64,000 bases of DNA from Heptranchias perlo (lineage: Eukaryota). Position 1 is the stretch's first letter, and the number at the start of each line of letters is the position of its first letter. Under the pieces are notes generated by a model. It was not told where the DNA came from and did not search any database. It worked only from the letters and a program-made list of their open reading frames with translations. The stretch lies in contig NC_090347.1 in NCBI RefSeq assembly GCF_035084215.1, positions 16,554,001-16,618,000 of the forward strand, in the 5' to 3' direction. The position numbers were made by a program, and so were the translations under genes. Below, piece by piece: positions 47-60,214 of this stretch.

Positions 47-290
47 ATCAGGAGTAGTAGTATCAAATCTTTATCAACAGCAGTATTAGAAATACCAGTA
101 TCATATCTGTATCAACAGTGGTATCACGAGTATTAGTATCAGATCTATATCAACCCTGTTATCAGGAGTACCAGCAATGGATCTGTATCAACCCTGGTAT
201 GAGTTGCAACATTATCAGGTATGTATTAACATTGGTTTTGAGAGTGTTACTGATTCAGCACTGATATTGTAAAAGTATCAGCACCAGGTA
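47..290. repeat. Degenerate ~38-bp minisatellite (ATCAGGAGTA..GTATCA.ATCTGTATCAAC...GT), about 5-6 copies
   Basis: GTATCA/TATCAAC motifs recur with a 38-nt period. Confidence 0.6.
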
Positions 291-519
291 TATATATCAT
301 TTGGGGTTTGAGTAAGGATGTTGGCGGAGGCAGATATTAAGGGGTAAAGGTAGCTGAACTATAGTGAAAATGTTATGAAGGAGGTGAATGAGAAGTTTCC
401 TACCTGTACCTGTATTCTTACCTGCATGTAAAGAACGCTTAGCCTTAATGAAGGTAGCAATGGAAAAGCTTCTGTTAGACAACAAAGTCTGTAACGGGAC
501 ATAGAATGAGAAGTATGCC

Positions 520-820
520 CCAAGTTTAAAAATAAGGGGTCTCCCATTTAAGACGGAGATGAGAAGAATTTTTTTCTCTCGGAGGGTCGTGAGTCTATGG
601 AACTCCCTTCCCCAGAGAGCGGTGGAGGCAGGATCATTGAATATTTTTAAGGCGGAGTTAGATAGATTCCTAATTAACAAGGGAGTCAAAGGTTATAGTA
701 GGTAGACAAGAAAGTAGGGTTGAGGTCACAATCAGATCAGCCATGATCTTATCAAATGGCAGAGCAGGCTCGAGAGGCCAAATGGCCTACTCCTGCTCTT
801 AATTCTTACGTTCGTATGTA
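520..820 (+). mobile_element. CR1 LINE 3' end (ORF2 C-terminus plus 3'UTR)
   Basis: Encodes an ...FFSRRVVSLWNSLP-like end; the 3'UTR has GATCAGCCATGATCTT...GGCTCGAG...GGCCTACTCCTGCTC and a short repeat tail shared with other CR1 copies here. Confidence 0.85.
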
Positions 821-864
821 AGTTACGTATGATATTGATTCTTATTTTGCATTTTGTTCTGTAG

Positions 865-947
865 ATCTCTGGCAGTCGGTACAAACTCTGGCTATAAACT
901 TTTCTCTTTGGCTTCGGTGGACAGATTGGAGGAAATCTATAAATGCA
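865..947 (+). CDS. WIPI1: WIPI1 coding exon 2 ([27 protein letters not shown])
   Basis: ttttgttctgtag acceptor, gtgagt donor, 83 nt; matches the WIPI1/2 N-terminal blade; phase joins the exon at 25951. Confidence 0.9.
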
Positions 948-1679
948 GTGAGTGCCAGTTCCTTTAAAGTTATTCTATCCTTTATTAACCTTTTAGAACT
1001 GAATACCATTGCCATTTGTAATCCATGCTTTCTCTTGAAAGATTTTCTGTAAATGTCTAATATTTGTGGTATATGAAATAACACAATGTACATGATTCTA
1101 GGTTATTTTTTGTGGCACAACATCAATGTTTTAAAAATAGTCAGACTCATATGGTACAAAGGTAGAGAAGTAGCGCCTCTCCAGAAATGTCACTTATTTT
1201 TCTTGTTTTCATTGTATTATAACAGAAAGTGCCTGAAAGTATTCCACACATGCTGACTAAAATGAAGGATAGAGTATTGTGTTTTAGTTTGGTTGGGGTA
1301 TTTTATTGTGGTCATGAAGGTTGTCAATGCTGGGGAATGGAACAAGTTTCCATTTTTTAGCACCCCAGTATCAAACTTTTCAAGGTAAACTGTAACATGT
1401 CCAGAAATAGAGTACACCCTTTTCTGCTCTGCCCCCAAAATATGCCAAATTGCCAAGTTCAGAAGGGCACCAGTACAAATTTCTTCATACCAGCCAATTT
1501 TGTGTTTGAGACTGGCCAAACTCTCAATTGACAGAAAAAGACAATGTTCAACACACCTCAAGCACTCAGTCTATAAGGTAGATCACTATCACCTTATCCA
1601 AACAGGTGAAGAATAAACATAAAAGTACAAAGATCCTGAGCAATATTGAAAGAAACAAAATAATGTGGGGGTGCTGTGT

Positions 1680-1763
1680 GTGGCGGGGAGGGGGGGGGTG
1701 GTGGCGGGGAGGGGGGGGGTGGTGGCGGGGAGGGGGGGGGTGGTGGCGGGGAGGGGGGGGGTG
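1680..1763 (+). repeat. G-rich 21-bp tandem repeat (GTGGCGGGGAGGGGGGGGGTG)x4 running into an assembly gap
   Basis: Four exact copies seen directly. Confidence 0.9.
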
Positions 1764-2026
1764 NNNNNNNNNNNNNNNNNNNNNNNNNNNNNNNNNNNNN
1801 NNNNNNNNNNNNNNNNNNNNNNNNNNNNNNNNNNNNNNNNNNNNNNNNNNNNNNNNNNNNNNNNNNNNNNNNNNNNNNNNNNNNNNNNNNNNNNNNNNNN
1901 NNNNNNNNNNNNNNNNNNNNNNNNNNNNNNNNNNNNNNNNNNNNNNNNNNNNNNNNNNNNNNNNNNNNNNNNNNNNNNNNNNNNNNNNNNNNNNNNNNNN
2001 NNNNNNNNNNNNNNNNNNNNNNNNNN
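1764..2026. other. Assembly gap (263 N)
   Basis: Run of N. Confidence 1.
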
Positions 2027-2829
2027 GGAAGCTGAACTTAACTTTCTACTTTGTTGAATGTTTTTATTAATGTACTTCGGCACATAACAAACAAGTGGAG
2101 GCAATTGCCTAACTAAATTCCATGGTTGGTAACTGCTCCTTTGGAGGATGATAAAAGTGAAGGCAGGAAAGTGTAAAACTGCCGATGGCAAGTTAATCCA
2201 AATGCCACTCAACAAAGAACCAGAGTTTCAAGAGTCCAGTTTACCTGTATACACACCAATGAGTGGTGACTCAACTACAGGCACTTTTACCCAATATGAA
2301 TGAGGTCAAGCTGCAGTTCATAGTGTAAACATGCCCAGCTCTCTTATCCTGATGGCGTTGTAGGCCCATGAAAACTTGGGTCTGCAATTCTGCCACTGAG
2401 ATGGGGAACCAGTTTAGCAATGTAAATTAGTGCTGTCTGTGTGGCTCCATATTAAAATGGGGTCCAGCACGCCCACTGAGACTGGCCCTGCTCTGTCAAT
2501 GTAAAAACGGGAGAGTGGTGCACAGATGTCACTCTCACAAAACTAGATGTAGTGCAACCATAAAGGTAAAAGCAGCATATGTTTATCTGGAGAATAATCC
2601 CCTGTTAATGACTTAGTTGCTCACAGATACTTTTTTCTCACAATGGACCACTTCCACAAACAAGCCCTTACTCCCCATGTCAAAGTATGATCTTATGTGT
2701 AAAGTATCTGATGATGTAGGATGGCTGGGTGAACATTAAACTCCTTATGATCACTGGAAATAGTATCTCTGAACCTTTCCAACTGGTCATAAATAACACG
2801 CTGACAGATGGTATATCTCAGGCTACAAA

Positions 2830-4713
2830 CTAGAATCATAGATCATAGAAGTTTACAACATGGAAACAGGCCCTTCGGCCCAACATGTCCATGTCGCCCA
2901 ATTTATACCACTAAGCTAGTCCCAATTGCCTGCACTTGGCCCATATCCCTCTATACCCATCTTACCCATGTAACTGTCCAAATGCTTTTTAAAAGACAAA
3001 ATTGTACCCGCCTCTACTACTGCCTCTGGCAGCTCGTTCCAGACACTCACCACCCTTTGAGTGAAAAAATTGCCCCTCTGGACCCTTTTGTATCTCTCCC
3101 CTCTCACCTTAAATCTATGTCCCCTCGTTATAGACACCCCTACCTTTGGGAAAAGATTTTGACTATCTACCTTATCTATGCCCCTCATTATTTTATAGAC
3201 TTCTATAAGATCACCCCTCAACCTCCTACTCTCCAGGAAAAAAAGTCCCAGTCTATCTAACCTCTCCCTATAAGTCAAACCATCAAGTCCCGGCAGCATC
3301 CTAGTAAATCTTTTCTGCACTCTTTCTAGTTTAATAATATCCTTTCTATAATAGGGTGACCAGAACTGTACACAGTATTCCAAGTGTGGCCTAACTAATG
3401 TATTGTACAACTTCAACAAGACATCCCAACTCCTGTATTCAATGTTCTGACCAATGAAACCAAGCAAGCTGAATGCCTTCTTCACCACCCTATCCACCTG
3501 TGACTCCACTTTCAAGGAGCTATGAACCTGTACTCCTAGATCTCTTTGTTCTATAACTCTCCCCAACGCCCTACCATTAATGGAGTAGGTCCTGGCCCGA
3601 TTCGATCTCCCAAAATGCATCACCTCACATTTATCTAAATTAAACTCCATCTGCCATTCATCGGCCCACTGGCCCAATTTATCAAGATCCCGTTGCAATC
3701 CTAGATAACCTTCTTCACTGTCCACGATGCCACCAATCTTGGTGTCATCTGCAAACTTACTAACCATGCCTCCTAAATTCTCATCCAAATCATTAATATA
3801 AATAACAAATAACAGCGGACCCAGCACCGATCCCTGAGGCACACCGCTGGTCACAGGCCTCCAATTTGAAAAACAACCCTCTACACCCACCCTCTGTCTT
3901 CTGTCGTCAAGCCAATGTTGTATCCAATTGGCTACCTCACCTTGGATCCCGTGAGATTTAACCTTATGTAACAACCTACCATGCGGTACCTTGTCAAAGG
4001 CTTTGCTAAAGATCATGTAGACCACGTCTACTGCACAGCCCTCATCTATCTTCTTGGTTACCCCTTCAAAAAACTCAATCAAATTCGTGAGACATGATTT
4101 TCCTCTCACAAAACCATGCTGACTGTTCCTAATCAGTCCCTGCCTCTCCAAATGCCCGTAGATCCTGTCTCTCAGAATACCCTCTAACAACTTACCCACT
4201 ACAGATGTCAGGCTCACCGGTCTGTAGTTCCCAGGCTTTTCCCTGCCGCCCTTCTTAAACAAAGGCACAACATTTGCTACCCTCCAATCTTCAGGCACCT
4301 CACCTGTAGCGGTGGATGATTCAAATATCTCTGCTAGGGGACCCGCAATTTCCTCCCTAACCTCCCATAACGTCCTGGGATACATTTCATCAGGTCCCGG
4401 AGATTTATCTACCTTGATGCGCGTTAAGACTTCCAGCACCTCCCTCTCTGTAATATGTACACTCCTCAAGACATCACTATTTATTTCCCCAAGTTCCCTA
4501 ACATCCATGCCTTTCTCAACCGTAAATACCGATGCGAAATATTCATTTAGGATCTCACCCATCTCTTGTGGTTCCGCACATAGATGACCTTGTTGATCCT
4601 TCAGAGGCCCTACTTTCTCCCTAGTTACTCTTTTGCCCTTTATGTATTTGTAGAAGCTCTTTGGATTCACCTTTGCCTTATCTGCCAAAGCAATCTCATG
4701 TCCCCTTTTTGCC
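2830..4713 (-). mobile_element. 5'-truncated young CR1 LINE; uninterrupted 590-aa RT-domain ORF (2916-4688)
   Basis: RT motifs (NYRPVSLTS, QHGF, GVPQGSVLGP, FADD, RPHLEYC, WNELP); repeat tail at the left end; candidate 7-bp TSD CTACAAA at 2823-2829 and 4714-4720. Confidence 0.95.
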
Positions 4714-5291
4714 CTACAAATCAGATCTATTAAGAAATAAAATTAGCAAAAACAAAAGTCAAATAACAGAAGGAAGATAAATCATAGTGGTTCACTTAAT
4801 TTACAAAGCTGATTTTAAAATAATAAAATTACTCAAAATGTAAATGATTCTTCACAACTTGGAACAAGCTACAGTGAGGTAAAGCTTATACATGAAATTG
4901 GATATTTCCGAGTGTTTCCACTAGCTTCTGCTTCTTCAACGGCCTGGCAAGGCAGCTAATCACCAGGTTATAATACCTCATGTAATTGTAAGAACACTGG
5001 GTTCCAGTATCCCAACAACTATATGCAAAGGAATCAGACCCTCATTTTCCCCCTACTAAGGAACCATCTGGGGTTTTACCATCCAGTTTTAGGTTTAGGA
5101 GTAAGTGCTGCCTAAGTCAGCTCGCCAAACTGCCCTTACATTAACCAGTTCGGATTGAAATGAATTTATTTTACCAGCCCTCTGTTAGGATGCCCACAAG
5201 CTGCTGAGTGAGTGCGTTAACTCTTTCTTGCCAAATTATCAAAGTCCACAAGTCAGGCCACAAATGATACACTAACAACTATTTACAAAAT

Positions 5292-16345: not shown

Positions 16346-19275
16346 TAGCGGGAAAGTTTAACTGACAGGGAGCTCTGAGATCTGAATCCTTGGAAATCTG
16401 GTTTAGAGACATGTGCCCTGCTGCCTGCGTAACCAGGTCACCTCTGCAGTAACATTCTTGGTAGCCTGTTTTTTAGTACAACCTTCTTGTACCTCAGTTT
16501 CAGAGGCAATATTGTGTGCTTCCTGTAGCATAAATAGTGATTGGGATTACAGGCCTAAAGTGAATCTAAAGAATGTTGATATGGGTATTAAACAACATGG
16601 GGGGGTGTCAGAGTGCTGGACTGCATTTGTAAACCAGCATGTAGTGGCTTGAAGTGCCAAGGCGGTGGGATTTACAGCCTTGAATCCTGACATGGCCTAT
16701 TGTTCAATCTCAGATTACTGTCAGCAGAAGCTCAGGAACATGTCCACCCTCTCATATGCTGGACGTCCTACAAAAGCACTCTGAAATTGGGACCTAAATA
16801 AAAATAGTATAACATTGCCTTTGCAGGACTTACAAGTAGTTATACCATGGTAGAAGAGCCACTGACATTCACTGTTTAAGATTAGTCACTTGGTTGAGGT
16901 ACTGGAGGGCTACAGGAGCCTACAGAACTGTATTCTAACCGTGTTTTCAGGAGACAAGAGGGGATTTTTTTTTTAAAAAGCAGCAATGATTACAACTTGG
17001 ATGTATGAGAATAGAGACCAGCATGTTTAGTGTGTGTTAGCCAGCACTATTCCTCCTTATTCACACTTGTGTTAAAAAGAAGCAGCAATGTGAGGTGCAG
17101 CACTGGCACCAACAGCTTGCACCATGGAATGGAAGCGGGATTGGGCCTGCAGGCCTCTACATGCTGAGCTGGAGGTCTCCCCCTGGCACTGCTCCACTGG
17201 GAGGGAGAAAACTGTCAGAGAAAGAGTGACCGAGTCATCCTTTCTTTCCTATTTAAAATGACTTATAAGCATAAAAATGTAGGGAGGAACTTTCCAAGGA
17301 TCTGTGCCATGTACTTTGCACACAATGGGCGACTTACTGGAAAACCAGCAGTAAAAGGAGGAGGGGTAGTAGTTGTAGAATAACCTGTAGCCTTCTGTAG
17401 CCATGGTCTCAGTTCCATATTAGGTGATGTACCTACCAACTGAGAAATCCTCTGTTAATTAGAAACCTGCTCCTATCTAAGAAACTAGTTTGTGTGAAAA
17501 CCATTAAAGCTGAATTAAAATTGATAGTGTCGTTCAAAAATAAAGGCAAGAGGATTGTTATTTTGTTGAATTTGAGGATCTTGTCAACTTGTTGTCTCAC
17601 GGTTTGTTTAGTAGAACCACATTCAGGTCTTCTATTGACTGGATTACAATCCCTGTTTTTTAGTTGAAAGATATCTGGCTGTACAAATGAATTCAATAAA
17701 GCATGATCCATTTTGTCTCAGGACTATATTTAGCAACCCGTATTTGATTGAGTAAGCTTGAAAAGTTTAATTGTGTATCAGAATATAACTGTTGTGTATC
17801 ACTATTAACTGTGCTGCAGTGTTTCAATTGTTTCAAGTTACACTGCTGGTAACTTAAGTTCAAAGACTTTATTTGATAATATTCCCTCTTTAGGGACTGA
17901 TTCATATTGGAGCACGATTCCACAGATGATGACAGTCCTATAGTACCCAGATGTTTTACAGATGTATGAGCCTAGACAGTGAGGCCTTGAAATTCTGGGG
18001 GCTGGGAGGGCAAATGTTGGGCAAATTGCCCGTGGGTGGGCTGCAATTTGGGTGGAACCCTTACTCGCTGGGATTTTGCCCTGTTTAAAGAATGGCCCAA
18101 ATTCCAGTGGGGGAGTCTTTCACCTGCATCTGCCCACCTCACCCACATCAGAGGACAGCTTCGGGAGCATGTCTTGGGGCTACCCCAAGAATTTTGCTCA
18201 TTGCATCCTCCACAATTGAAGCCACACCAGTTGACAGCTGGCATGAATTCTGCAATGGACCTTTTAAAGGACCCAAAAGGTTCCCTTGAACACGTAACTG
18301 AACCCAGAAGGAATCAGCTACCTTACAATTGAGACCCATATTTCCCTTTAAGGAAATAAATTAAAATTTTACAACTAGCTATTCGGCCATTGGAGTCTCA
18401 CAACATGCTATATAGAATATAAAAATAAGGACAGAATGTATGACTTTAAAATTGGGTCTGAATTTTGTCTGCGTGTCCTGGTCCACTTCTCCTGTCCTAT
18501 AACTCCACTTTACCTCTTCACCTGAAGACAACACTTGGTCTTTATTCACCGCATGAAACCCCACAAGAGAGTGACTAGTAATACGTTCAAAATCTTACAT
18601 CTGCATAAACTTCCTGTCAACTTTTTTCATTATGATTTCCTATGTCCACACTTACAATGGAACTGCTGTAAACTCCTTCTGTCAGTGGAGGCACTGGATG
18701 TAGGAATTTATAATTAGAAATATAAAAATAAAGGCAGAATATATGACTTTAAAATAGGGATTGAAATACATGTGTGTCTCATAGAAACATAGAAAATAGG
18801 AGCAGGAATAGGCCATTCGGCCCTTCGAGCCTGCTCCGCCATTCAATATGATCAAGGCTGATACTCTATTTCAATACCATATTCCCGCTTTCTCCCCATA
18901 CCTCTTGATGCCTTTTGTGTCTAGAAATCTATCTAGCTTCTTAAAAATATTCAGTGACTTGGCCTCCACAGCCTTCCGTGGTAGAGAAATCCACCACCCT
19001 CTGAGTGAAGAAATTTCTCCTCATCTCAGTCCTAAATGTCCTACCCCGTATCCTGAGACTGCGACCACTCGTTCTGGATCCCCCAGCCAGGAGAAACATC
19101 CTCCCTGCATCCAGTCTGTAGCCCTGTCAGAATTTTATACGTTTCAATGAGATACCCTCTCATTCTTCTCAACTCTAGTGAATAGATGATGTGGAGATGC
19201 CGGTGATGGACTGGGGTGGACAAATGTAAGGAATCTTACAACACCAGGTCATAGTCCAACAAATTTATTTTAAAA

Positions 19276-19312
19276 TCACAAGCTTTCGGAGATTATCCCC
19301 TTCGTCAGGTGA
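19276..19312 (-). ncRNA. Minimal type I hammerhead ribozyme motif (left PLE arm)
   Basis: Minus strand reads UCAC-CUGACGA-A-GGGGAUAAUCUCC-GAAA-GC-UU-GUGA. Confidence 0.7.
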
Positions 19313-20095
19313 ATGAGTGAAAGGTTCTCAAATCGCATATCTTATATTAGGCTGGGACACCATCACACCAATCAAAAGGTGTCGTTGGTGTTCAGACAGA
19401 TTAGCCACGGAGAACAGTACGTCCCAGTACACTGGATATACATTGTTTCAGATTACACAGACAAGAGACCCAAATGGCAGAGAAAGAGACCCAAATGGCA
19501 GAGAGAGAGAGAGAGAATATTAAAAACAGATAACTTTTTTTTCCCCTTGCTGGTGGGGTTACGTGTAGTGTGACATGAACCCAAGATCCCGGTTGAGGCT
19601 GTCCTCATGGGTGCGGAACTTGGCTATCAGTTTCTGCTCGACGATTTTGCGTTGTCATGTGTCTCGAAGGCCGCCTTGGAGAACGCTTACCCGAAGATCG
19701 GTGGCTGAATGTCCTTGACTGCTAAAGTGTTCCCCGACTGGGAGGGAACCCTCCTGTCTGGCGATTGTTGCGCGGTGTCCGTTCATCCGTTGTCGCAGTG
19801 TCTGCATGGTCTCGCCAATGTACCATGCTCCGGGGCATCCTTTCCTGCAACGTATGAGGTAGACAACGTTGGCCTAGTCACAGGAGTATGAACCATGTAC
19901 CTGGTGGGTGGTGTCCTCTCGTGTGATGGTGGTATCCGTGTCGATGATCTGGCATGTCTTGCAGAGGTTGCCGTGGCAGGGTTGTGTGGTGTCATGGACG
20001 CTGTTCTCCTGAAGGCAGGAGAACATGGCGTAGTTTCTCCGCTCCGGGGAAGTACTGGACGACGAAGGGTACTCTGTTGGATGCGTCACGGGTTC

Positions 20096-20677
20096 CGCAG
20101 CCTTCAACATGTCATCGATGACGACGAACACCTCGCTAAGGCCATCCCCACGCCTCCACTACTCACCTTCAAACAGCCACCCAACCTCAAACAGACCATC
20201 GTTCGAAGCAAATTACCCTGCTTTCAGGAGAACAGCGTCCACGACACCACACAACCCTGCCACGGCAACCTCTGCAAGACATGCCAGATCATCGACATGG
20301 ATACCACCATCACACGAGAGGACACCACCCACCAGGTACATGGTTCATTCTCCTGTGACTCGGCCAACGTTGTCTACCTCATACGATGCAGGAAAGGATG
20401 CCCCGGAGCACGGTACATTGGCGAGACCATGCAGACACTGCGACAACGGATGAACGGACACCGCGCAACAATCGCCAGACAGGAGGGTTCCCTCCCAGTC
20501 GGGGAACACTTTAGCAGTCAAGGACATTCAGCCACCGATCTTCGGGTAAGCGTTCTCCAAGGCGGCCCTCGAGACACACGACAACGCAAAATCGTCGAGC
20601 AGAAACTGATAGCCAAGTTCCGCACCCATGAGGACAGCCTCAACCGGGATCTTGGGTTCATGTCACGCTACACGTAA
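20096..20677 (+). pseudogene. PLE linker plus GIY-YIG endonuclease domain (5'-truncated, frame open)
   Basis: FKQPPNLKQTIVRS, PC..NLCKTC, NVVYLIRC..C...YIGET..TLRQRMNGHR, HF, E..LI..F, LNRD are typical PLE GIY-YIG motifs; RT absent. Confidence 0.9.
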
Positions 20678-20915
20678 CCCCACCAGCAAGGGAAAAAAAA
20701 AGTTATCTTTTTAATATTCTCTCTCTCTCTCTCTCTCTCTCTGCCATTTGGGTCTCTTTCTCTCTGTCTGTTTAATCTGAAACAATGTATATTCAGTGTA
20801 CTGGGACGTACTGTTCTCCGTGGCTAATCTGTCTGAACACCAACGACACCTTTTGATTGGTGTGATGGTGTCCCAGCCTAATATAAGATATGCGATTTGA
20901 GAACCTTTCACTCAT

Positions 20916-20952
20916 TCACCTGACGAAGGGGATAACCTCCGAAAGCTTGTGA
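20916..20952 (+). ncRNA. Minimal type I hammerhead ribozyme motif (right PLE arm)
   Basis: UCAC-CUGACGA-A-GGGGAUAACCUCC-GAAA-GC-UU-GUGA: catalytic boxes CUGAnGA and GAAA, helix II, palindromic AAGCUU in place of helix III, 4-bp helix I. Confidence 0.7.
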
Positions 20953-21744
20953 TTTTAAAATAAATTTGTTGGACTATAACCTGGTGTTGTAAGATTCCTT
21001 ACTAGTGAATACAGGCCTAGTCGACCCAATCTCTCATACGACCCAATCTCTCCTCCTGGACTAATTATCCCCCAGCCTCTAAACTCGTTTCTCCTGAAAA
21101 CAAGGGAGATCAACTGTATATGCAAATAAATTCAGACACTGATAAGGCTAGCTCAGTTTGCAAAAGATCAAGTTGCTATTACAATAAAGGAAAAGAATTT
21201 TAATCTGAGAAGCTGCATTAACACCCAACAACTTATTACCCTTTTTTCTTTACCTTGTTTTAAATGCAGATTTTCAAAAGTATTACCAACATCCGTATAA
21301 AATCACAAAGTCAAGAGCGAATCAGGAATTTATTTTTTATATCCCTAATTAACGCAACAATTAAAAAAAAATTGAGAGTGCAGAGCAAAGGCCTCAGAAG
21401 AGGGCACCACACCCAGTCACACAGCCCAAAATACTTGTTTTTACAAGACAGAGCTACTGCCCAGATTACAGTGTGTTTAAAATGTGGTTGTGTTTAAAAA
21501 TATCAGTAACAACTGGAACTTGAAGCAGAATGCAGCCGCTTCCTGCCACATTTACATTCAGTCATAACAATGTAAAGTGATATTACTCAGCTCCAACGTT
21601 CAGCCGTTGACCGTCTCAGCCCCAGAATTCAGTCCCTGCCTGGGCTCCAGCACTCAGTCCCCGATCCAACTCAGCCCCAGCACTTAATCCCCAATTCGAC
21701 CCCAGAATTCCATCCTCGCCTAGGCCTCAGCACAGGGCCTGACC

Positions 21745-25950: not shown

Positions 25951-26120
25951 CAGACACGCCCGATGTGTATATTGTGGAACGGCTGTTTTCCAGCAGCCTG
26001 GTGGTCATTGTCAGCCTCTCAACACCACGGAGGATGAACGTTTATCATTTCAAGAAAGGGACAGAGATCTGCAACTACAGCTATTCCAATACCATCCTCA
26101 CCGTTAGGCTCAACAGACAG
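25951..26120 (+). CDS. WIPI1: WIPI1 exon 3 ([56 protein letters not shown])
   Basis: Polypyrimidine tract plus cag, gtaaga donor, 170 nt, conserved WIPI sequence. Confidence 0.97.
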
Positions 26121-26363: not shown

Positions 26364-27000
26364 AGGGGGCAAATGCGGGTGCGTTGGGGGTGGGCGGCTC
26401 TGGCAATTAAAGCCGGTGGGATAACAGTTAAAGAGCCAAATGTACCTCACTGAGGTACTTAAGGCACTTTACCTGTGACAGATGAAGGGATTAGAAAGAT
26501 TTTTAACTTACCTGAGCAGCTTGCCCACCGCTTCTGATTTACGCCTAAGGGCCGGATCAGGGAAAAAGAAATTAAATAAAAAACCATGCAAGGAAGTGAA
26601 AACACTAAATGCACCTACCTTTGAAATCTGCTCTGATGTCCGATGTCCCCCCTCTTCACCCTCCCGATGTCCCCCCTCTTCACCCTCCCAATGTCCCCCC
26701 CCCCCCCCCCCGGGTCTTCCCCTCTCCCCCGCCCGCTAGTCCAGCACTGGATCTTCCATTCTCTTCCCCCCCCCCCCCCCGCCCCGGTCTTCTGTTCCAG
26801 CGCCGGATGACGTCTTGCTGTCTCTCTTTCTCGTGCCCCCTCCCCCACCCACGCGTTGCAGCTCCTGACGGCAGCCAGCCTGTCAATCAGGCTAGCCCGA
26901 AACCCAGAGAGGACGTTAACCATTATCAAACAACGTGCGATCGCGTCCGAAACTTTAAGTTTGGTTCATGCGGGTTAGCCACGCGCCCAGTTACTGCAGT
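26364..27000. mobile_element. GC-rich non-autonomous DNA element/MITE-like, with an internal 24-bp C-rich tandem repeat
   Basis: CpG-rich patch in an AT-rich intron; CGATGTCCCCCCTCTTCACCCTCC about x2.5; ends not clearly resolved. Confidence 0.4.
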
Positions 27001-30482: not shown

Positions 30483-31812
30483 ATGCTAGAATCTATTATT
30501 AAGGACGTAGTAACAGGACACTTAGAAAATCTTAATATGATTAGGCAGAGTCAATATGGTTTTATGAAAGGGAAATTGTGTTTGACAAATCTGTTAGAGT
30601 TTTTTAAGGATGTAACTAGCAGGGTAGATAAGGGGGAACCAGTGGATGTAGAATATTTGGATTTTCAAAAGGCATTCAATAAGGGTCACACAAGAGGTTG
30701 TTACATAAGATTAAGGGTCATGGGGTTGGGGGTAATATATTAACATGGGTTGAGGATTGGTTAACGGACAGAAAACAGAGAGTAGGAATAAAAGGGTCAT
30801 TTTCGGGTTGGCAGGTTGTAACTAGTGGGGTGCCGCAAAGATCAGTGCTTGGGCCTCAGCTGTTTACAATATATATCAACGACTTGGATGAGGGGACTAA
30901 GTGTAATGTATCCAAGTTTGCTGATGATACAAAGCTGGGTGGGAAAGTAAGCTGTGAGGAGGATGCAAAGGGATATAGACAGGCTAAGTGAGTGGGCGAG
31001 AAGATGGCAGCTGGGGTATAATGTGGGGAAATGTGAAATTATCCACTTTGGTAGGAAGTATAGAAAAGCAGAATATTTTTTAAAAGGTGAGAGACTTAAA
31101 AACGTTGGTAGTCAGAGGGATTTGGGTGTCCTTGTACATGAATCACAGAAAGTTAACATGCAGGTACAGCAAGCAATTAGGAAGGCAAATAGTATGTTTG
31201 CGTCTATTGCAAGGGGGTTGGAGTAATTATATAGGCCTGTGGTGAGACCACACCTGGAGTACTATGTACAGTTTTGGTCTCCTTACCGAAGGAAGGATAT
31301 AATTGCCTTAGAAGGGGTGCAACAAAGGTTCACTAGATTGATTCCTGGGATGAGAGGGTTGTCCTATGAAGAGAGATTGAGTAGAATGGGCCTATTTTCT
31401 CTGGAGTTTAGAAGAATGAGAGTTGACCTCATTGAAACATATAAAATTCTTAGAGGGCTTGACAGGATAGATACTGAGAGGCTGTTTCCCTTGGCTGGAG
31501 AGTCTAGAACCAGTGGTCATAGACTCAAGATAAGGGATCAGCCATTTAGGACCAAGCTGAAGAAAAATATCTTCACTCAGAGGGTTGTGAATCTTTGGAA
31601 TTCTCTACCCTAGAGAGCTGTGAATGCTCAGTCGTTGAGTATATTCAAGACTAAGATCGATGGATATTTGGACACTAAGAGAATCAAGGGATATGGGGAT
31701 CGGGCGGGAAAGTGGAGTTGAGGTAGAAGGTTGGCCATGATGTTATTGAATGGCGGAGCAGGCTCGAGGGGCTGTATGACCTACTCCTGCTCCTATTTCT
31801 TATGTTCTTATG
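30483..31812 (+). mobile_element. 5'-truncated CR1 LINE with frameshifts and 3'UTR
   Basis: ORF pieces 30450-31613 with RT motifs (FADD, RPHLEY, WNSLP); tail TTCTTATGTTCTTATG. Confidence 0.92.
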
Positions 31813-41541: not shown

Positions 41542-42786
41542 CAAAAATGGAAAGATGAAAAATTGTAAATGGTTCTAAATCCAAGTTTATATTTTAATTA
41601 TTACTAGTCGATCTCTTGTGGTGTTGCACATGTGAGGATCAAGACCAAATGTAGCCTTCAGATGAAGCAGCCCTAGAGGATGGGAGATAATTGGACCAGG
41701 ACATCAAAAAGTAATTCATTCCCCATCTTAAAGTCTTAGGGGGTACATTTCATCAGAGCTGCTCCCATTCTGCCACTGTAACTTTGCTGGAAGTGTGGTA
41801 GAAACCCTGATTACACACATTAACAGGATTTCTGCCACACCTCCTGCAAAGTTATGATGGTGGAGCAGGAGCAGCCCCTAGGAAATTCCCGATCATACAT
41901 TCTGTCCTTTTTTTATATAATATTTTGATATTATTATTCATAATTATATAGTAAAACTTGTAACAACTTGGGAAGCAGAAAAGTAGAATTGGTTGGAGCA
42001 AGGAGATTCTTTGCCGTACAGGCTGAGGAGCTGGGAGACGCAAAACTTTTTTTTTTATTCGTTCATGGGATGTGGGCGTCGCTGGCATGGCCAGCATTTA
42101 TTGCCCATCCCTAATTGCCCTTGAGAAGGTGGCGGTGAGCCGCCTTCTTGAACCGCTGCAGTCTGTGTGGTGAAGGTCCTCCCACTGAGACACTACAGTG
42201 CCACACTGGTGGGAGGGTGTAATTACAACATGACAAGTTTACATAGGCAGTTTCCTTCATAAATGTGGACATAGGAACTTATAACAGTAAAAGTTGACAT
42301 AGGAAGTGTGCACAGTTATACGATTTTTAAGGTAGATAGTTATGAATAAAGCAGGTATTGATATAGCTTAGTACATGTTAGCCAACCTCATTAGTCAGGT
42401 TACAAAATACTTGTCAGCAATTAACAACAACTAAACAGATTAATTGATCATTTATTTCATTTGCTATTTTGTTATTTAAAAAATGTTTTAAAAAAATTCT
42501 GTGTGTGCAAAATGTCGCCATATCAGCAGTGACTCCACTTGGCTGTCATTGGAACCTTCTGAGGACTTGAAAGCAAGCTCTTTCCTTCTTTTCATTTGTT
42601 CAGGAACATTTTCTCTTGTGCTCTATTTATAGTGAAATTATAAACATGTTCTTTAAATCAATCGGGAATAGTGCAATGAGAATACCTTCCCAGGCTATAT
42701 TCTAAGCCACGGGTAGTCATTAAATAGTGATGAATATATTTCTGTGCTGCTTTGGGGTTTAGCAAATGTATTGTTTTGGTGAGCAG

Positions 42787-46967: not shown

Positions 46968-47470
46968 ACAATACAAAGGGAGCTCTATGGGCTGTACAAT
47001 ACATTACACAGGGAGCTCTATGGGCTGTACAATACATTACACAGGGAGCTCTATGGGCTGTACAATACATTACACGGAGCTCTATGGGCTGTACAATACA
47101 TTACACAGGGAGCTCTATGGGCTGTACAATACATTACACAGGGAGCTCTATGGGCTGTACAATACATTACACAGGGAGCTCTATAGGCTGTACAATACAT
47201 TACACAGGTAGCCCTATGGGTGTACAATACATTACACAGGGAGCTCTATGGGCTGTACAATACATTACACAGGGAGCTCTATGGGCTGTACAATACATTA
47301 CACAGGGAGCTCTATGGGCTGTACAATACATTACACAGGGAGCCCTATAGGCTGTACAATACATTACACAGGGAGCTCTATGGGCTGTACAGTGCATTAC
47401 ACAGGGAGCTGTATGGGCTGTACAGTGCATTACACAGGGAAGTTTGATAGGTTGTACTGTATATTACAGA
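46968..47470. repeat. 33-bp minisatellite (CAGGGAGCTCTATGGGCTGTACAATACATTACA), about 14 copies
   Basis: Near-identical tandem units; small deletions in two units; decays at the right end. Confidence 0.97.
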
Positions 47471-47504
47471 GGGGAGCTAAATGTGCTGAACAATACACTA
47501 CACC

Positions 47505-47905: not shown

Positions 47906-48926
47906 AGCCTGAACCAGCGCTTTGTTACTCACAAGGGCAAGTGTTAATCTGAAACTGAGAAGAAAGTACTCCAGTAGCATTCACCTTCATTCTACAGTGA
48001 AGCTGACCCCTGTCATTTTGATTAACACTTTAAAGAGTGCAGTAATGTTGCTGCACTGCGTCCTAAAGTGTCACAAGTTTCAAACTGTCCTTTGCTTAGA
48101 TTGTTTATTTTTCCTCATTGTATTTTATGGTATGCAGCATTAAGATCAGACAGTTTGGGATAAGAAAAACTGTTTTCTCCATAAATGGATGGTACACCTC
48201 AATAGTCAGAGGACTGAAACCTCTGAGTACTGAGATGTACCATCAGTTTATAGGTTTCCTGCACCTCTCCAAACAATGCAATACGTGGACAGGATATTGC
48301 TGTTGTTAAAATCACCAAAGTATGAGTCATTGCTCTGTACACAGACATCTTGGAAATCTTGTGATTGCATTTCATTTCACAACCTGTGCGCATCCATGCA
48401 CAGCAGGAGTATTGGGAGCAAGGGGAGATCAGCCACCATCCCACCCACCCACCTCCCGCCACTGCACAGGACCTTGCGGATTTTGTAAGGAGAAATGAGA
48501 AAGATAATTAACACCATTGAGTAGTCAGTAGTTTAAAGGCTGTGCAATTGCCTTAAATATTAGTAAAAAAATGTAATCCAAATGGTGTAAGACTTACTTG
48601 GACTATATGTTTTTGCTATGTGTTTAGCAATTTTCACAGTAATGTGTTGACATCTTTTGTGTTGATCTTAGCCCTAAATATTTAATCAGTTCTTTCAGTA
48701 ACTGATGGGACATTTTGATGCAGAAAGAATACAGCCTTGTAAACGTTTATCATCAAATTACTTATACAAGGTGAAGGACTGAACACGGGATACAAACCTC
48801 TGGTATTTTGAAAATTGAAGTTTTCATAATCTTATTTCTGCTACTTTATATGAAGCAAGTAAAAACATCAGAAATCAGTTCTGTGAAAGAAACTGAACAT
48901 TTATTTGTGGCCAAATTTGAGTGTTT

Positions 48927-60055: not shown

Positions 60056-60214
60056 GGGGTAAAATTCAACTTTGGTCGGGGTGCAAAATGAGCGCTAGCG
60101 GATCAGCTGCCTGTTATACATCCCGACCAAAGGAAAGAAAATCAGCCGGTGTATAACGGGCGGTTGATCCGCTACCATCTGTTTTGTGCCCCCGCTAAAG
60201 TTGAATTTTACCCC
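60056..60214. mobile_element. 159-bp fold-back MITE
   Basis: 18-bp perfect TIR GGGGTAAAATTCAACTTT / AAAGTTGAATTTTACCCC; internal TAGCGGATCA..GTTATACA pairs with TGTATAAC..TGATCCGCTA. Confidence 0.8.

Follow-up and report, generated by a model that had tools for sequence, protein, structure and literature searches.

The window analyzed in this study, a stretch of 64,000 nucleotides from Heptranchias perlo (NC_090347.1, positions 16,554,001-16,618,000), contains a palindromic insertion within intron 2 of WIPI1, which raises the question of how such a structure was formed and what it means for the gene that carries it. An earlier note, made from the letters alone, had described it as a young Penelope-like element (PLE) in the form of a palindrome, whose transcript could fold into double-stranded RNA.

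The palindromic unit in WIPI1 intron 2

The insertion is flanked by exons 2 and 3 of WIPI1 (Table 1), in agreement with the earlier placement in intron 2, and exon 1 lies about 3.1 kb upstream of the window. The gene was assigned to the WIPI1 paralogue because the C25 paralogue shares 55 of 56 residues with human WIPI2, whereas the gene of the window is more distant. The insertion occurred in an old LINE, and both of its flanks align end to end with another copy of this LINE. The whole unit is enclosed by one TSD of 9-10 bp (TAGTGAATA on both sides, with 10 bp when a shared C is counted), as expected of a single insertion event.

The two arms of about 790 nt were confirmed to be reverse complements of each other, with 197 nt between them. 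Their identity is 95.3% with gaps, and the differences comprise 16 substitutions and, around a (TC)n tract, three indels of 2, 13, and 7 nt. The substitutions are mixed in type, with CpG-type changes at five of the 16 sites, and an imprint of A-to-G editing was rejected on this basis. Three features had escaped the earlier note: a 41-nt tail on one side only, a spacer in two orientations, and, in both arms, a putative hammerhead-like motif. Additionally, each arm contains sequence absent from the other.

The arms diverge by 2.2%, compared with a median of 2.6% (range 0.2-6.4%) among 35 two-armed loci of the family. The description of the insertion as young is weakened by this mid-range value, as the youngest of these loci stands at 0.2%. 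With the epaulette-shark rate and its upper bound (PMC10587355) as the clock, a divergence of 1.1% per arm translates into about 5-15 million generations. This estimate assumes a shark host and leaves RT errors out of account, and it no more than hints at fixation of the copy.

Table 1. Positions of the insertion, its parts, and its surroundings within the window
Feature	Positions	Strand	Remarks
WIPI1 exon 2	865..947	+	
WIPI1 exon 3	25951..26120	+	
Old CR1-type LINE, 3' fragment	18780..21060	-	Split by the insertion (18780-19184 and 21003-~21060)
Left TSD	19176..19184	+	9 bp (10 with C at 19175)
PLE tail	19185..19225	-	41 nt, at left end of unit only
Left arm	19226..20019	-	Linker Cys motif, GIY-YIG region (two in-frame stops), 3' region
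Minimal hammerhead-like motif (putative)	19276..19312	-	CUGANGA / GAAA core, palindromic helix III; read from sequence
Piece A	20020..20093	-	Inverted here; 74 nt that directly precede piece B in the parent
Piece B	20094..20216	+	5' part of right copy, absent from left arm
Right arm	20217..21002	+	Tailless; endonuclease frame open until stop 20675-20677, no start, no RT
Minimal hammerhead-like motif (putative)	20916..20952	+	Sense to WIPI1 pre-mRNA; read from sequence
Right TSD	21003..21011	+	

Parent family and layout of sister units

The PLE origin proposed earlier was upheld: the unit almost certainly derives from a very abundant Penelope-like retrotransposon, as a broken, RT-less, 5'-truncated copy. 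Exact genome matches numbered 19,918 for a 35-nt terminus probe and 4,999 for a second short probe. The unit lacks an RT because it covers only positions ~1970-3011 of a 3011-nt reference copy (L074). The reference copy contains a single ORF, an 893-aa frame with RVT_1 at residues 429-560 (E=7.5e-10), followed by a C-terminal part that scores 0.97 to GIY-YIG clusters and has no match to the Pfam GIY-YIG; this is the RT and C-terminal endonuclease order of EN+ PLEs. As stated earlier, a GIY-YIG part without RT is present in both arms, with Atlas features at 0.97 to GIY-YIG clusters, while a Pfam search of the endonuclease frame returned no GIY-YIG match. In the translation, a pair of Cys lies between the equivalents of GIY and YIG and a pair of His further downstream, at a spacing that we take to be of the CCHH type. 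The CCHH motif is named for EN+ PLE endonucleases in PMC8557442. Directly upstream of the endonuclease, both arms encode CX4CXXC, an instance of the CX2-5CxxC motif in the RT-EN linker that marks the Neptune and Nematis clades (PMC8557442). By these motifs, rather than by an RT tree, the element is placed as a Neptune-type PLE. The putative hammerhead-like motifs, of a minimal type described in PMC4209133, folded no better than shuffles (z of -0.15 and -0.50) and gave no stable monomer fold, and an Rfam scan of 18500-21500 returned no matches.

Insertions of EN+ PLEs are described as having an adjacent inverted 5'-truncated copy, a one-sided tail of 30-40 bp, and a TSD (Craig et al. 2021, PMC8557442; PMC3846280), and an inverted 5'-truncated copy, one-sided tail, and TSD were all found in the WIPI1 unit. 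Like Pen2a_Av of Adineta vaga and EN+ PLEs, it is composed of head-to-head inverted copies with the tail on one end and one TSD (PMC8557442, PMC3846280), the TSD being of the same length as in Pen2a/Pen2_Av (PMC3846280). It also shares with published EN+ PLEs an internal microhomology deletion, and carries in its terminal region a putative hammerhead-like motif comparable to theirs (PMC8557442, PMC3846280). In contrast to the published layout, both of its copies are 5'-truncated and RT-less, its tail is 41 nt, and the direct pLTR or partial tandem, an optional feature in EN+ PLEs, is absent. A downstream partial tandem is present at the sister loci L167 and L168.

Closed head-to-head units were found in 38 of 59 fetched stretches and in 34 of a further 60, which were sampled long loci. 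Among 34 closed units, the tail was on exactly one side in 30 and a TSD of 9-16 bp was present in 26. In 18 of 30 units, the 5' reach of the tailless arm exceeded that of the tailed arm by more than 50 nt. Arms of one unit had more rare alleles in common than unrelated arms (1.60 vs 0.14): at least one was found in 25 of the 35 arm pairs, including three in the WIPI1 unit, and none in 10, with five pairs being no closer than unrelated arms. Gene conversion between arms could also yield common rare alleles.

The flipped centre and the origin of the unit

The spacer is composed of two neighbouring pieces of the parent, A and B, which are contiguous in family copies and one of which is flipped here. 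At an imperfect direct repeat, the left arm jumps over 111 nt and resumes at the point where the right arm has its start. At the jump it carries an odd C that fits the landing repeat, while the family base was T in 55 of 55 cases. Of 40 scored loci, none matched across the centre of the unit except the unit itself. A family of pre-deleted palindromic elements, either autonomous or MITE-like, was rejected, as the junction between the left arm and piece A had a single match genome-wide.

The unit was likely assembled in situ at the target from two cDNAs, with each cut DNA strand serving as primer for one of them. The use of two primers is held with good confidence, because a longer tailless arm could not result from copying the tailed arm, and both cDNAs would derive from one source element, because the arms of a unit have an excess of rare alleles in common. 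As with the anole enzyme in vitro, synthesis would begin for one cDNA at the tail-proximal site and for the other ~41 nt further in. The right cDNA would stop at the boundary of pieces A and B, while the left cDNA would quit its template at the imperfect direct repeat, anneal on the RNA at the end of the right cDNA, and copy 74-86 nt more in a twin-priming-like step, after which the two cDNA 3' ends would be joined and repaired. For the jump onto the stop point of the partner cDNA, the balance tips only slightly in favour. As a whole, a broken PLE copy placed head-to-head in one TSD through two-cDNA assembly at the target is probably the best explanation.

The landing of jumps at the partner's end recurred among sister units. 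With breakpoints taken as BLAST ends against one reference copy and uncertain by some nt, eight of 15 other jumps landed within -10 to +50 nt of the 5' end of the partner (null 0.39), a range set after the first cases had been seen, and seven landed away from it. In an independent sample, the 60 loci that alone were fetched later and that gave six events, three of the six jumps landed at the partner's end (p 0.0003-0.0014). When only pieces of at least 80 nt were counted, the landings at this position were 5 of 11 (null 1.0, p 0.0006). The arm ends also coincided without a jump in 5 of 37 units (null 1.5, p 0.015). Such coinciding ends could explain three short-piece landing matches.

Parts of this assembly have known counterparts. 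For example, the Poseidon element of Anolis carolinensis (PAc) cuts and extends both target strands in vitro, with an RT start site on either side of the tail and a predicted dimer (PMC11167929). Such a mechanism is in keeping with one TSD enclosing one arm that has the tail and one that lacks it. However, PAc belongs to another clade than the present family with its CX4CXXC linker, and inverted units and template jumps were not found treated for PAc in the portions of PMC11167929 consulted. In L1 twin priming, annealing of a second primer within the RNA yields an inverted piece that abuts the end of the first cDNA, and in dual priming two opposed cDNAs lie in one TSD (PMC2837659). The WIPI1 unit resembles both, with an inverted piece at the end of the first cDNA and opposed cDNAs in one TSD. 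Its second primer would not be a bare target end, as in L1, but one that already bore ~830 nt of cDNA, and a full inverted arm would precede the flipped piece for this reason. A flipped centre piece contiguous with the partner's start was not found described in the consulted portions of PMC8557442 and PMC3846280.

A later flip, in which a simple two-piece palindrome was inserted and piece A was inverted in place through repair or replication of an unstable centre, appears unlikely. The overlap of pieces A and B by merely 2-3 exact nt is expected from a clean inversion, but the junction of the left arm and piece A lies at an imperfect direct repeat with the base of the landing copy, as a same-sense template jump would leave it. 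Moreover, piece A has no good flanking pair of inverted repeats, and sister cases have overlaps of 4-45 nt and short direct homologies. Less probable still is the fold-back or self-priming model of PMC3846280, where a strand turns back and copies itself into the second arm. It would account for the rare alleles common to both arms and for the nearly identical end points in some units, yet the tail and piece A on the left and piece B on the right could not be copied from the opposite arm, and the frequently longer tailless arm also argues against it. Together with the recurring landing coincidence and the common rare alleles, the frequency with which the tailless arm is the longer one speaks for two primers on one source rather than a simple fold-back. 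Finally, long inverted repeats are hard for assemblers (PMC8557442), and no record was found to cross the whole unit among the assembled contigs, which were aligned over its left half (18300-20216). A fold-back artefact of the assembly or the library is nevertheless very unlikely, to the point of being negligible, because the arms differ at 16 sites and by three indels and each has sequence missing from the other, besides the TSD, the host LINE continuing across, and the family-typical tail asymmetry.

The predicted duplex RNA and the meaning of the family

The long RNA duplex proposed earlier is physically possible, with 830 predicted pairs and perfect runs of 156 and 142 bp, and on this prediction hairpin formation in the WIPI1 pre-mRNA is plausible. 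The 197-nt loop and 2% mismatch would speak against the extrusion of a cruciform, to which the DNA was earlier suggested to be prone. Hyper-edited intronic inverted repeats have been described for Penelope in lizard and for a palindromic Harbinger in frog (PMC5625713); like these, a self-folding repeat in the pre-mRNA would be an ADAR substrate. Passive editing is likely, because lizard Penelope is heavily hyper-edited and hyper-editing is abundant in elephant shark (PMC5625713). These records and the predicted duplex would also agree with a functional source of dsRNA, in which the WIPI1 pre-mRNA, edited by ADAR or processed by Dicer, would act on WIPI1 as a regulator or in trans as a silencer of the family. 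Such a function is nonetheless highly improbable, as the arms diverge at the family-typical rate, partly by CpG-type changes, with no sign of selection on pairing, and the WIPI1 unit is not needed among thousands of similar palindromes. The same abundance leaves little weight to the special trans-silencing role suggested before.

Contigs from four sequencing runs were aligned on 18300-20216 at 88% likeness, where they were swamped by family copies, and none among the four runs spanned this interval. A presumed RNA run showed 11 A>G and nine T>C changes vs 13 and nine in a DNA run, values that are alike and, amid the family copies, uninformative on editing. None of the sequencing runs listed as containing the locus sequence was an RNA run, and the four best DNA runs containing it are from one sample, possibly the source of the assembly. 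Two other organisms were without cover over part of the 3' region in the contig alignment, an observation that carries no evidential weight.

The WIPI1 unit is a real but ordinary copy among thousands, with a layout already published. It has decayed since insertion and most likely has no function of its own, and the locus itself is of little import. Upon transcription of WIPI1, it would fold as a long intronic duplex, like thousands of sister copies. Genome-wide, such palindromes would turn the family into a passive source of much intronic dsRNA; the dsRNA question concerns the PLE family rather than WIPI1, and editing or silencing would not single out this unit.

The PLE insertion cycle past first-strand priming is described as still unresolved (PMC11167929, PMC8557442), and the landing coincidence offers a modest mechanistic hint. 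Tentatively, and with the balance leaning slightly against it, PLEs may insert via two simultaneous target-primed cDNAs on one RNA complex, where a stalled cDNA would hand the RNA to its partner and synthesis would resume within ~50 nt of the stop point. If this hand-over is true, flipped centres would be its countable genomic footprint, a PLE form of twin priming of which no account was found in the literature searched, and the reading is testable on thousands of copies in the H. perlo genome.

A single two-armed insertion in WIPI1 intron 2

Self-comparison of the window returned one strong inverted pair, with arms separated by 197 nt that differ by 16 substitutions and three indels close to a (TC)n tract. 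This unit, derived from an apparently Neptune-type Penelope-like element (PLE), is bounded by the target-site duplication (TSD) TAGTGAATA, which extends to 10 bp when a shared C is counted, and its flanks match consecutive parts of another copy of a CR1-type LINE 3' end. Hence, a single event placed the 1,818 nt within an old LINE fragment, which confirmed both the palindrome and the single insertion described in the earlier note. The palindromic insertion is real and ordinary. Its placement in WIPI1 intron 2 also stands: the PROPPIN exons are on the plus strand, and the closer relative of WIPI2 is a paralogue on another contig, which agrees with human WIPI2 in 55 of 56 residues, whereas the window exon matches it less well.

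Coordinates of the unit, its host gene, other repeats of the window, and sister stretches elsewhere in the genome (L numbers, own coordinates)
Feature	Positions	Strand	Remark
WIPI1 exon 1			~3.1 kb upstream of window
WIPI1 exon 2	865-947	+	
WIPI1 exon 3	25951-26120	+	
TSD	19176-19184, 21003-21011		
Left-arm tail	19185-19225		
Left arm	19226-20019	-	
Spacer piece A	20020-20093	-	
Spacer piece B	20094-20216	+	
Right arm	20217-21002	+	
Young CR1-type LINE piece	2919-4721	-	WIPI1 intron 2; protein 96% identical over 600 residues to open copy elsewhere
Two old LINE ends	18780-19182, 31397-31812		only other long inverted pair in gene; 74% identity, 12 kb apart
Tandem array	46968-47503		period ~65 nt
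Short decayed self-inverted elements	60056-60214, 41747-41886, 48181-48251, 26424-26476		70-79%; MITE-like, unrelated to PLE family
L074 copy	648-3326	-	893-aa frame uninterrupted from 5' truncation to stop; arms 98% alike
L076 element ends	197-349		
L109 copy	779-3168		
L126 detour	3046-3114		

Element identity and family layout

The long frame of sister copy L074 included a reverse transcriptase (RT; RVT_1, E 7.5e-10), and at its C-terminal end it resembled the region found in the window. The 195-aa piece of the window scored 0.97 to Atlas clusters with Pfam GIY-YIG in 13-27% of their members, while its endonuclease frame had no direct Pfam match to GIY-YIG. Of the 3011-nt reference copy, the unit retained only the final ~1,040 nt, without RT or start, and its left arm is interrupted by two stops; the proposed PLE origin, with a GIY-YIG part and no RT, was thus upheld. 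Translation of the unit revealed a CX4CXXC linker and CCHH residues, features given for Neptune/Nematis PLEs (PMC8557442), and the unit therefore appears Neptune/Nematis-like as judged by motifs rather than by a tree. A 41-nt extension at the left end is missing from the right end. By-eye reading of each arm shows a minimal hammerhead-like motif, a type described in PMC4209133, and an Rfam search of the unit returned no match.

The family is abundant, with 19,918 exact genomic matches to a 35-nt terminal probe and 4,999 to a 36-nt endonuclease probe. In a hand count of the first 100 of the 19,918 terminal matches, 26 pairs within 5 kb ran plus then minus and none ran minus then plus; the rare opposite arrangement was seen in stretch L076, where two element ends lie tail to tail, 16 nt apart. 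Closed head-to-head units occurred in 38 of 59 stretches around terminal matches, not always involving the seed copy, and closed units of over 400 nt in 34 of 60 stretches around endonuclease matches, where 30 of the 34 carried the tail at one end only and 26 showed a detectable TSD of 9-16 bp. The unit shares with published PLEs the adjacent inverted 5'-truncated copy, a tail (30-40 bp in print) at one end (PMC8557442), and a TSD, which is reported at 9-10 bp together with internal microhomology deletions (PMC3846280). The head-to-head layout of unit and family is therefore an already published arrangement. Many family units are mini-palindromes of 130-245 bp (L033, L042, L043, L059, L079, L081, L084, and others), with arms that end at almost one point of the reference (~2884-2890), where the hammerhead-like motif has its 5' edge.

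Age and predicted duplex

Arm divergence over the coding 461 nt was 2.2%, compared with a median of 2.6% and a minimum of 0.2% among 35 two-armed family loci. The unit is thus middle-aged for its family, and not young as first suggested. If the host is a shark, the slow rate of PMC10587355 points to an age of millions of generations, and no empty allele would then be expected. The unit is predicted to form a duplex of ~830 pairs, in which perfectly paired stretches reach 156 and 142 bp. Given that Penelope copies are heavily edited in a lizard (PMC5625713), passive ADAR editing of the WIPI1 intron is plausible, and would not be new. The unit is not singled out among palindromes for a function, since its arm divergence follows that of the family and equivalents number in the thousands; the suggested pre-mRNA hairpin survives as a prediction, and not as a property special to this locus. 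With a 197-nt loop between the arms, extrusion as a cruciform is unlikely, which argues against cruciform-prone DNA.

Flipped centre and jump landings

The spacer consists of pieces A and B on opposite strands, while in family copies A adjoins B directly on its 5' side. Read as sense, the left copy comprises A, a 111-nt skip over B, the arm, and the tail, and the right copy comprises B and the arm without a tail. The skip connects two imperfect direct repeats, and the joint base of the left arm is C, the base of the landing repeat, where family arms carry T in 55 of 55. The arm/A joint occurred once in the genome and so formed at this locus. Fold-back copying of one arm from the other was disfavoured here, as each copy holds sequence missing from the other.

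In 18 of 30 family units, the tailless arm extended further 5' by more than 50 nt, and in 10 of the 30 the tailed arm did so; rare alleles common to the arms of one unit numbered 1.60, compared with 0.14 for unrelated arms. Private sequence, arm reach, and common rare alleles fit two cDNAs that would be primed from one cut strand each, at separate start sites, and copied from RNA of one source. The tailed and tailless arms fit the action of the anole enzyme, which cuts both strands and extends them from two starts bounding the tail (PMC11167929). Two sister stretches showed other structures: L109 holds a copy that has a single arm and, on its 5' side, a short inverted piece (ends 686 and 648-705), which gives a plain twin-priming-like structure, and the left arm of L126 detours 69 nt to a distant element part and returns to its departure point.

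The left arm of the unit, after its skip, lands ~10 nt from the right-arm start. Other upstream jumps of at least 15 nt in two-armed loci comprised 15 events, after exclusion of shorter gaps, variable-3'-region gaps, duplications, backward jumps, and one jump each without a partner arm, in a tail end, and in a mini-palindrome. With breakpoints taken as BLAST ends and a landing range chosen post hoc, eight of the 15 landed within -10 to +50 nt of the partner's 5' end (0.39 by permutation) and seven outside it. The same range held six of 10 jumps of at least 100 nt, and three of six in a sample collected only once the idea had been formed (p 0.0003-0.0014). Arm ends coincided without a jump in 5 of 37 cases (null 1.5); with short pieces explicable by such plain coincidence removed, 5 of 11 landings remained (null 1.0, p 0.0006).

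The favoured reading of landings at the partner's end is a twin-priming-like hand-over, in which the second cDNA would anneal to the first free RNA past the stalled partner cDNA; the main rival is a later inversion of piece A in place. The nearest described steps to such a PLE hand-over are L1 twin priming and dual priming (PMC2837659). The coincidence of landing and partner end was not found for PLEs in the literature searched, which was covered mostly through search listings. The worth of the unit lies in this junction clue rather than in WIPI1.
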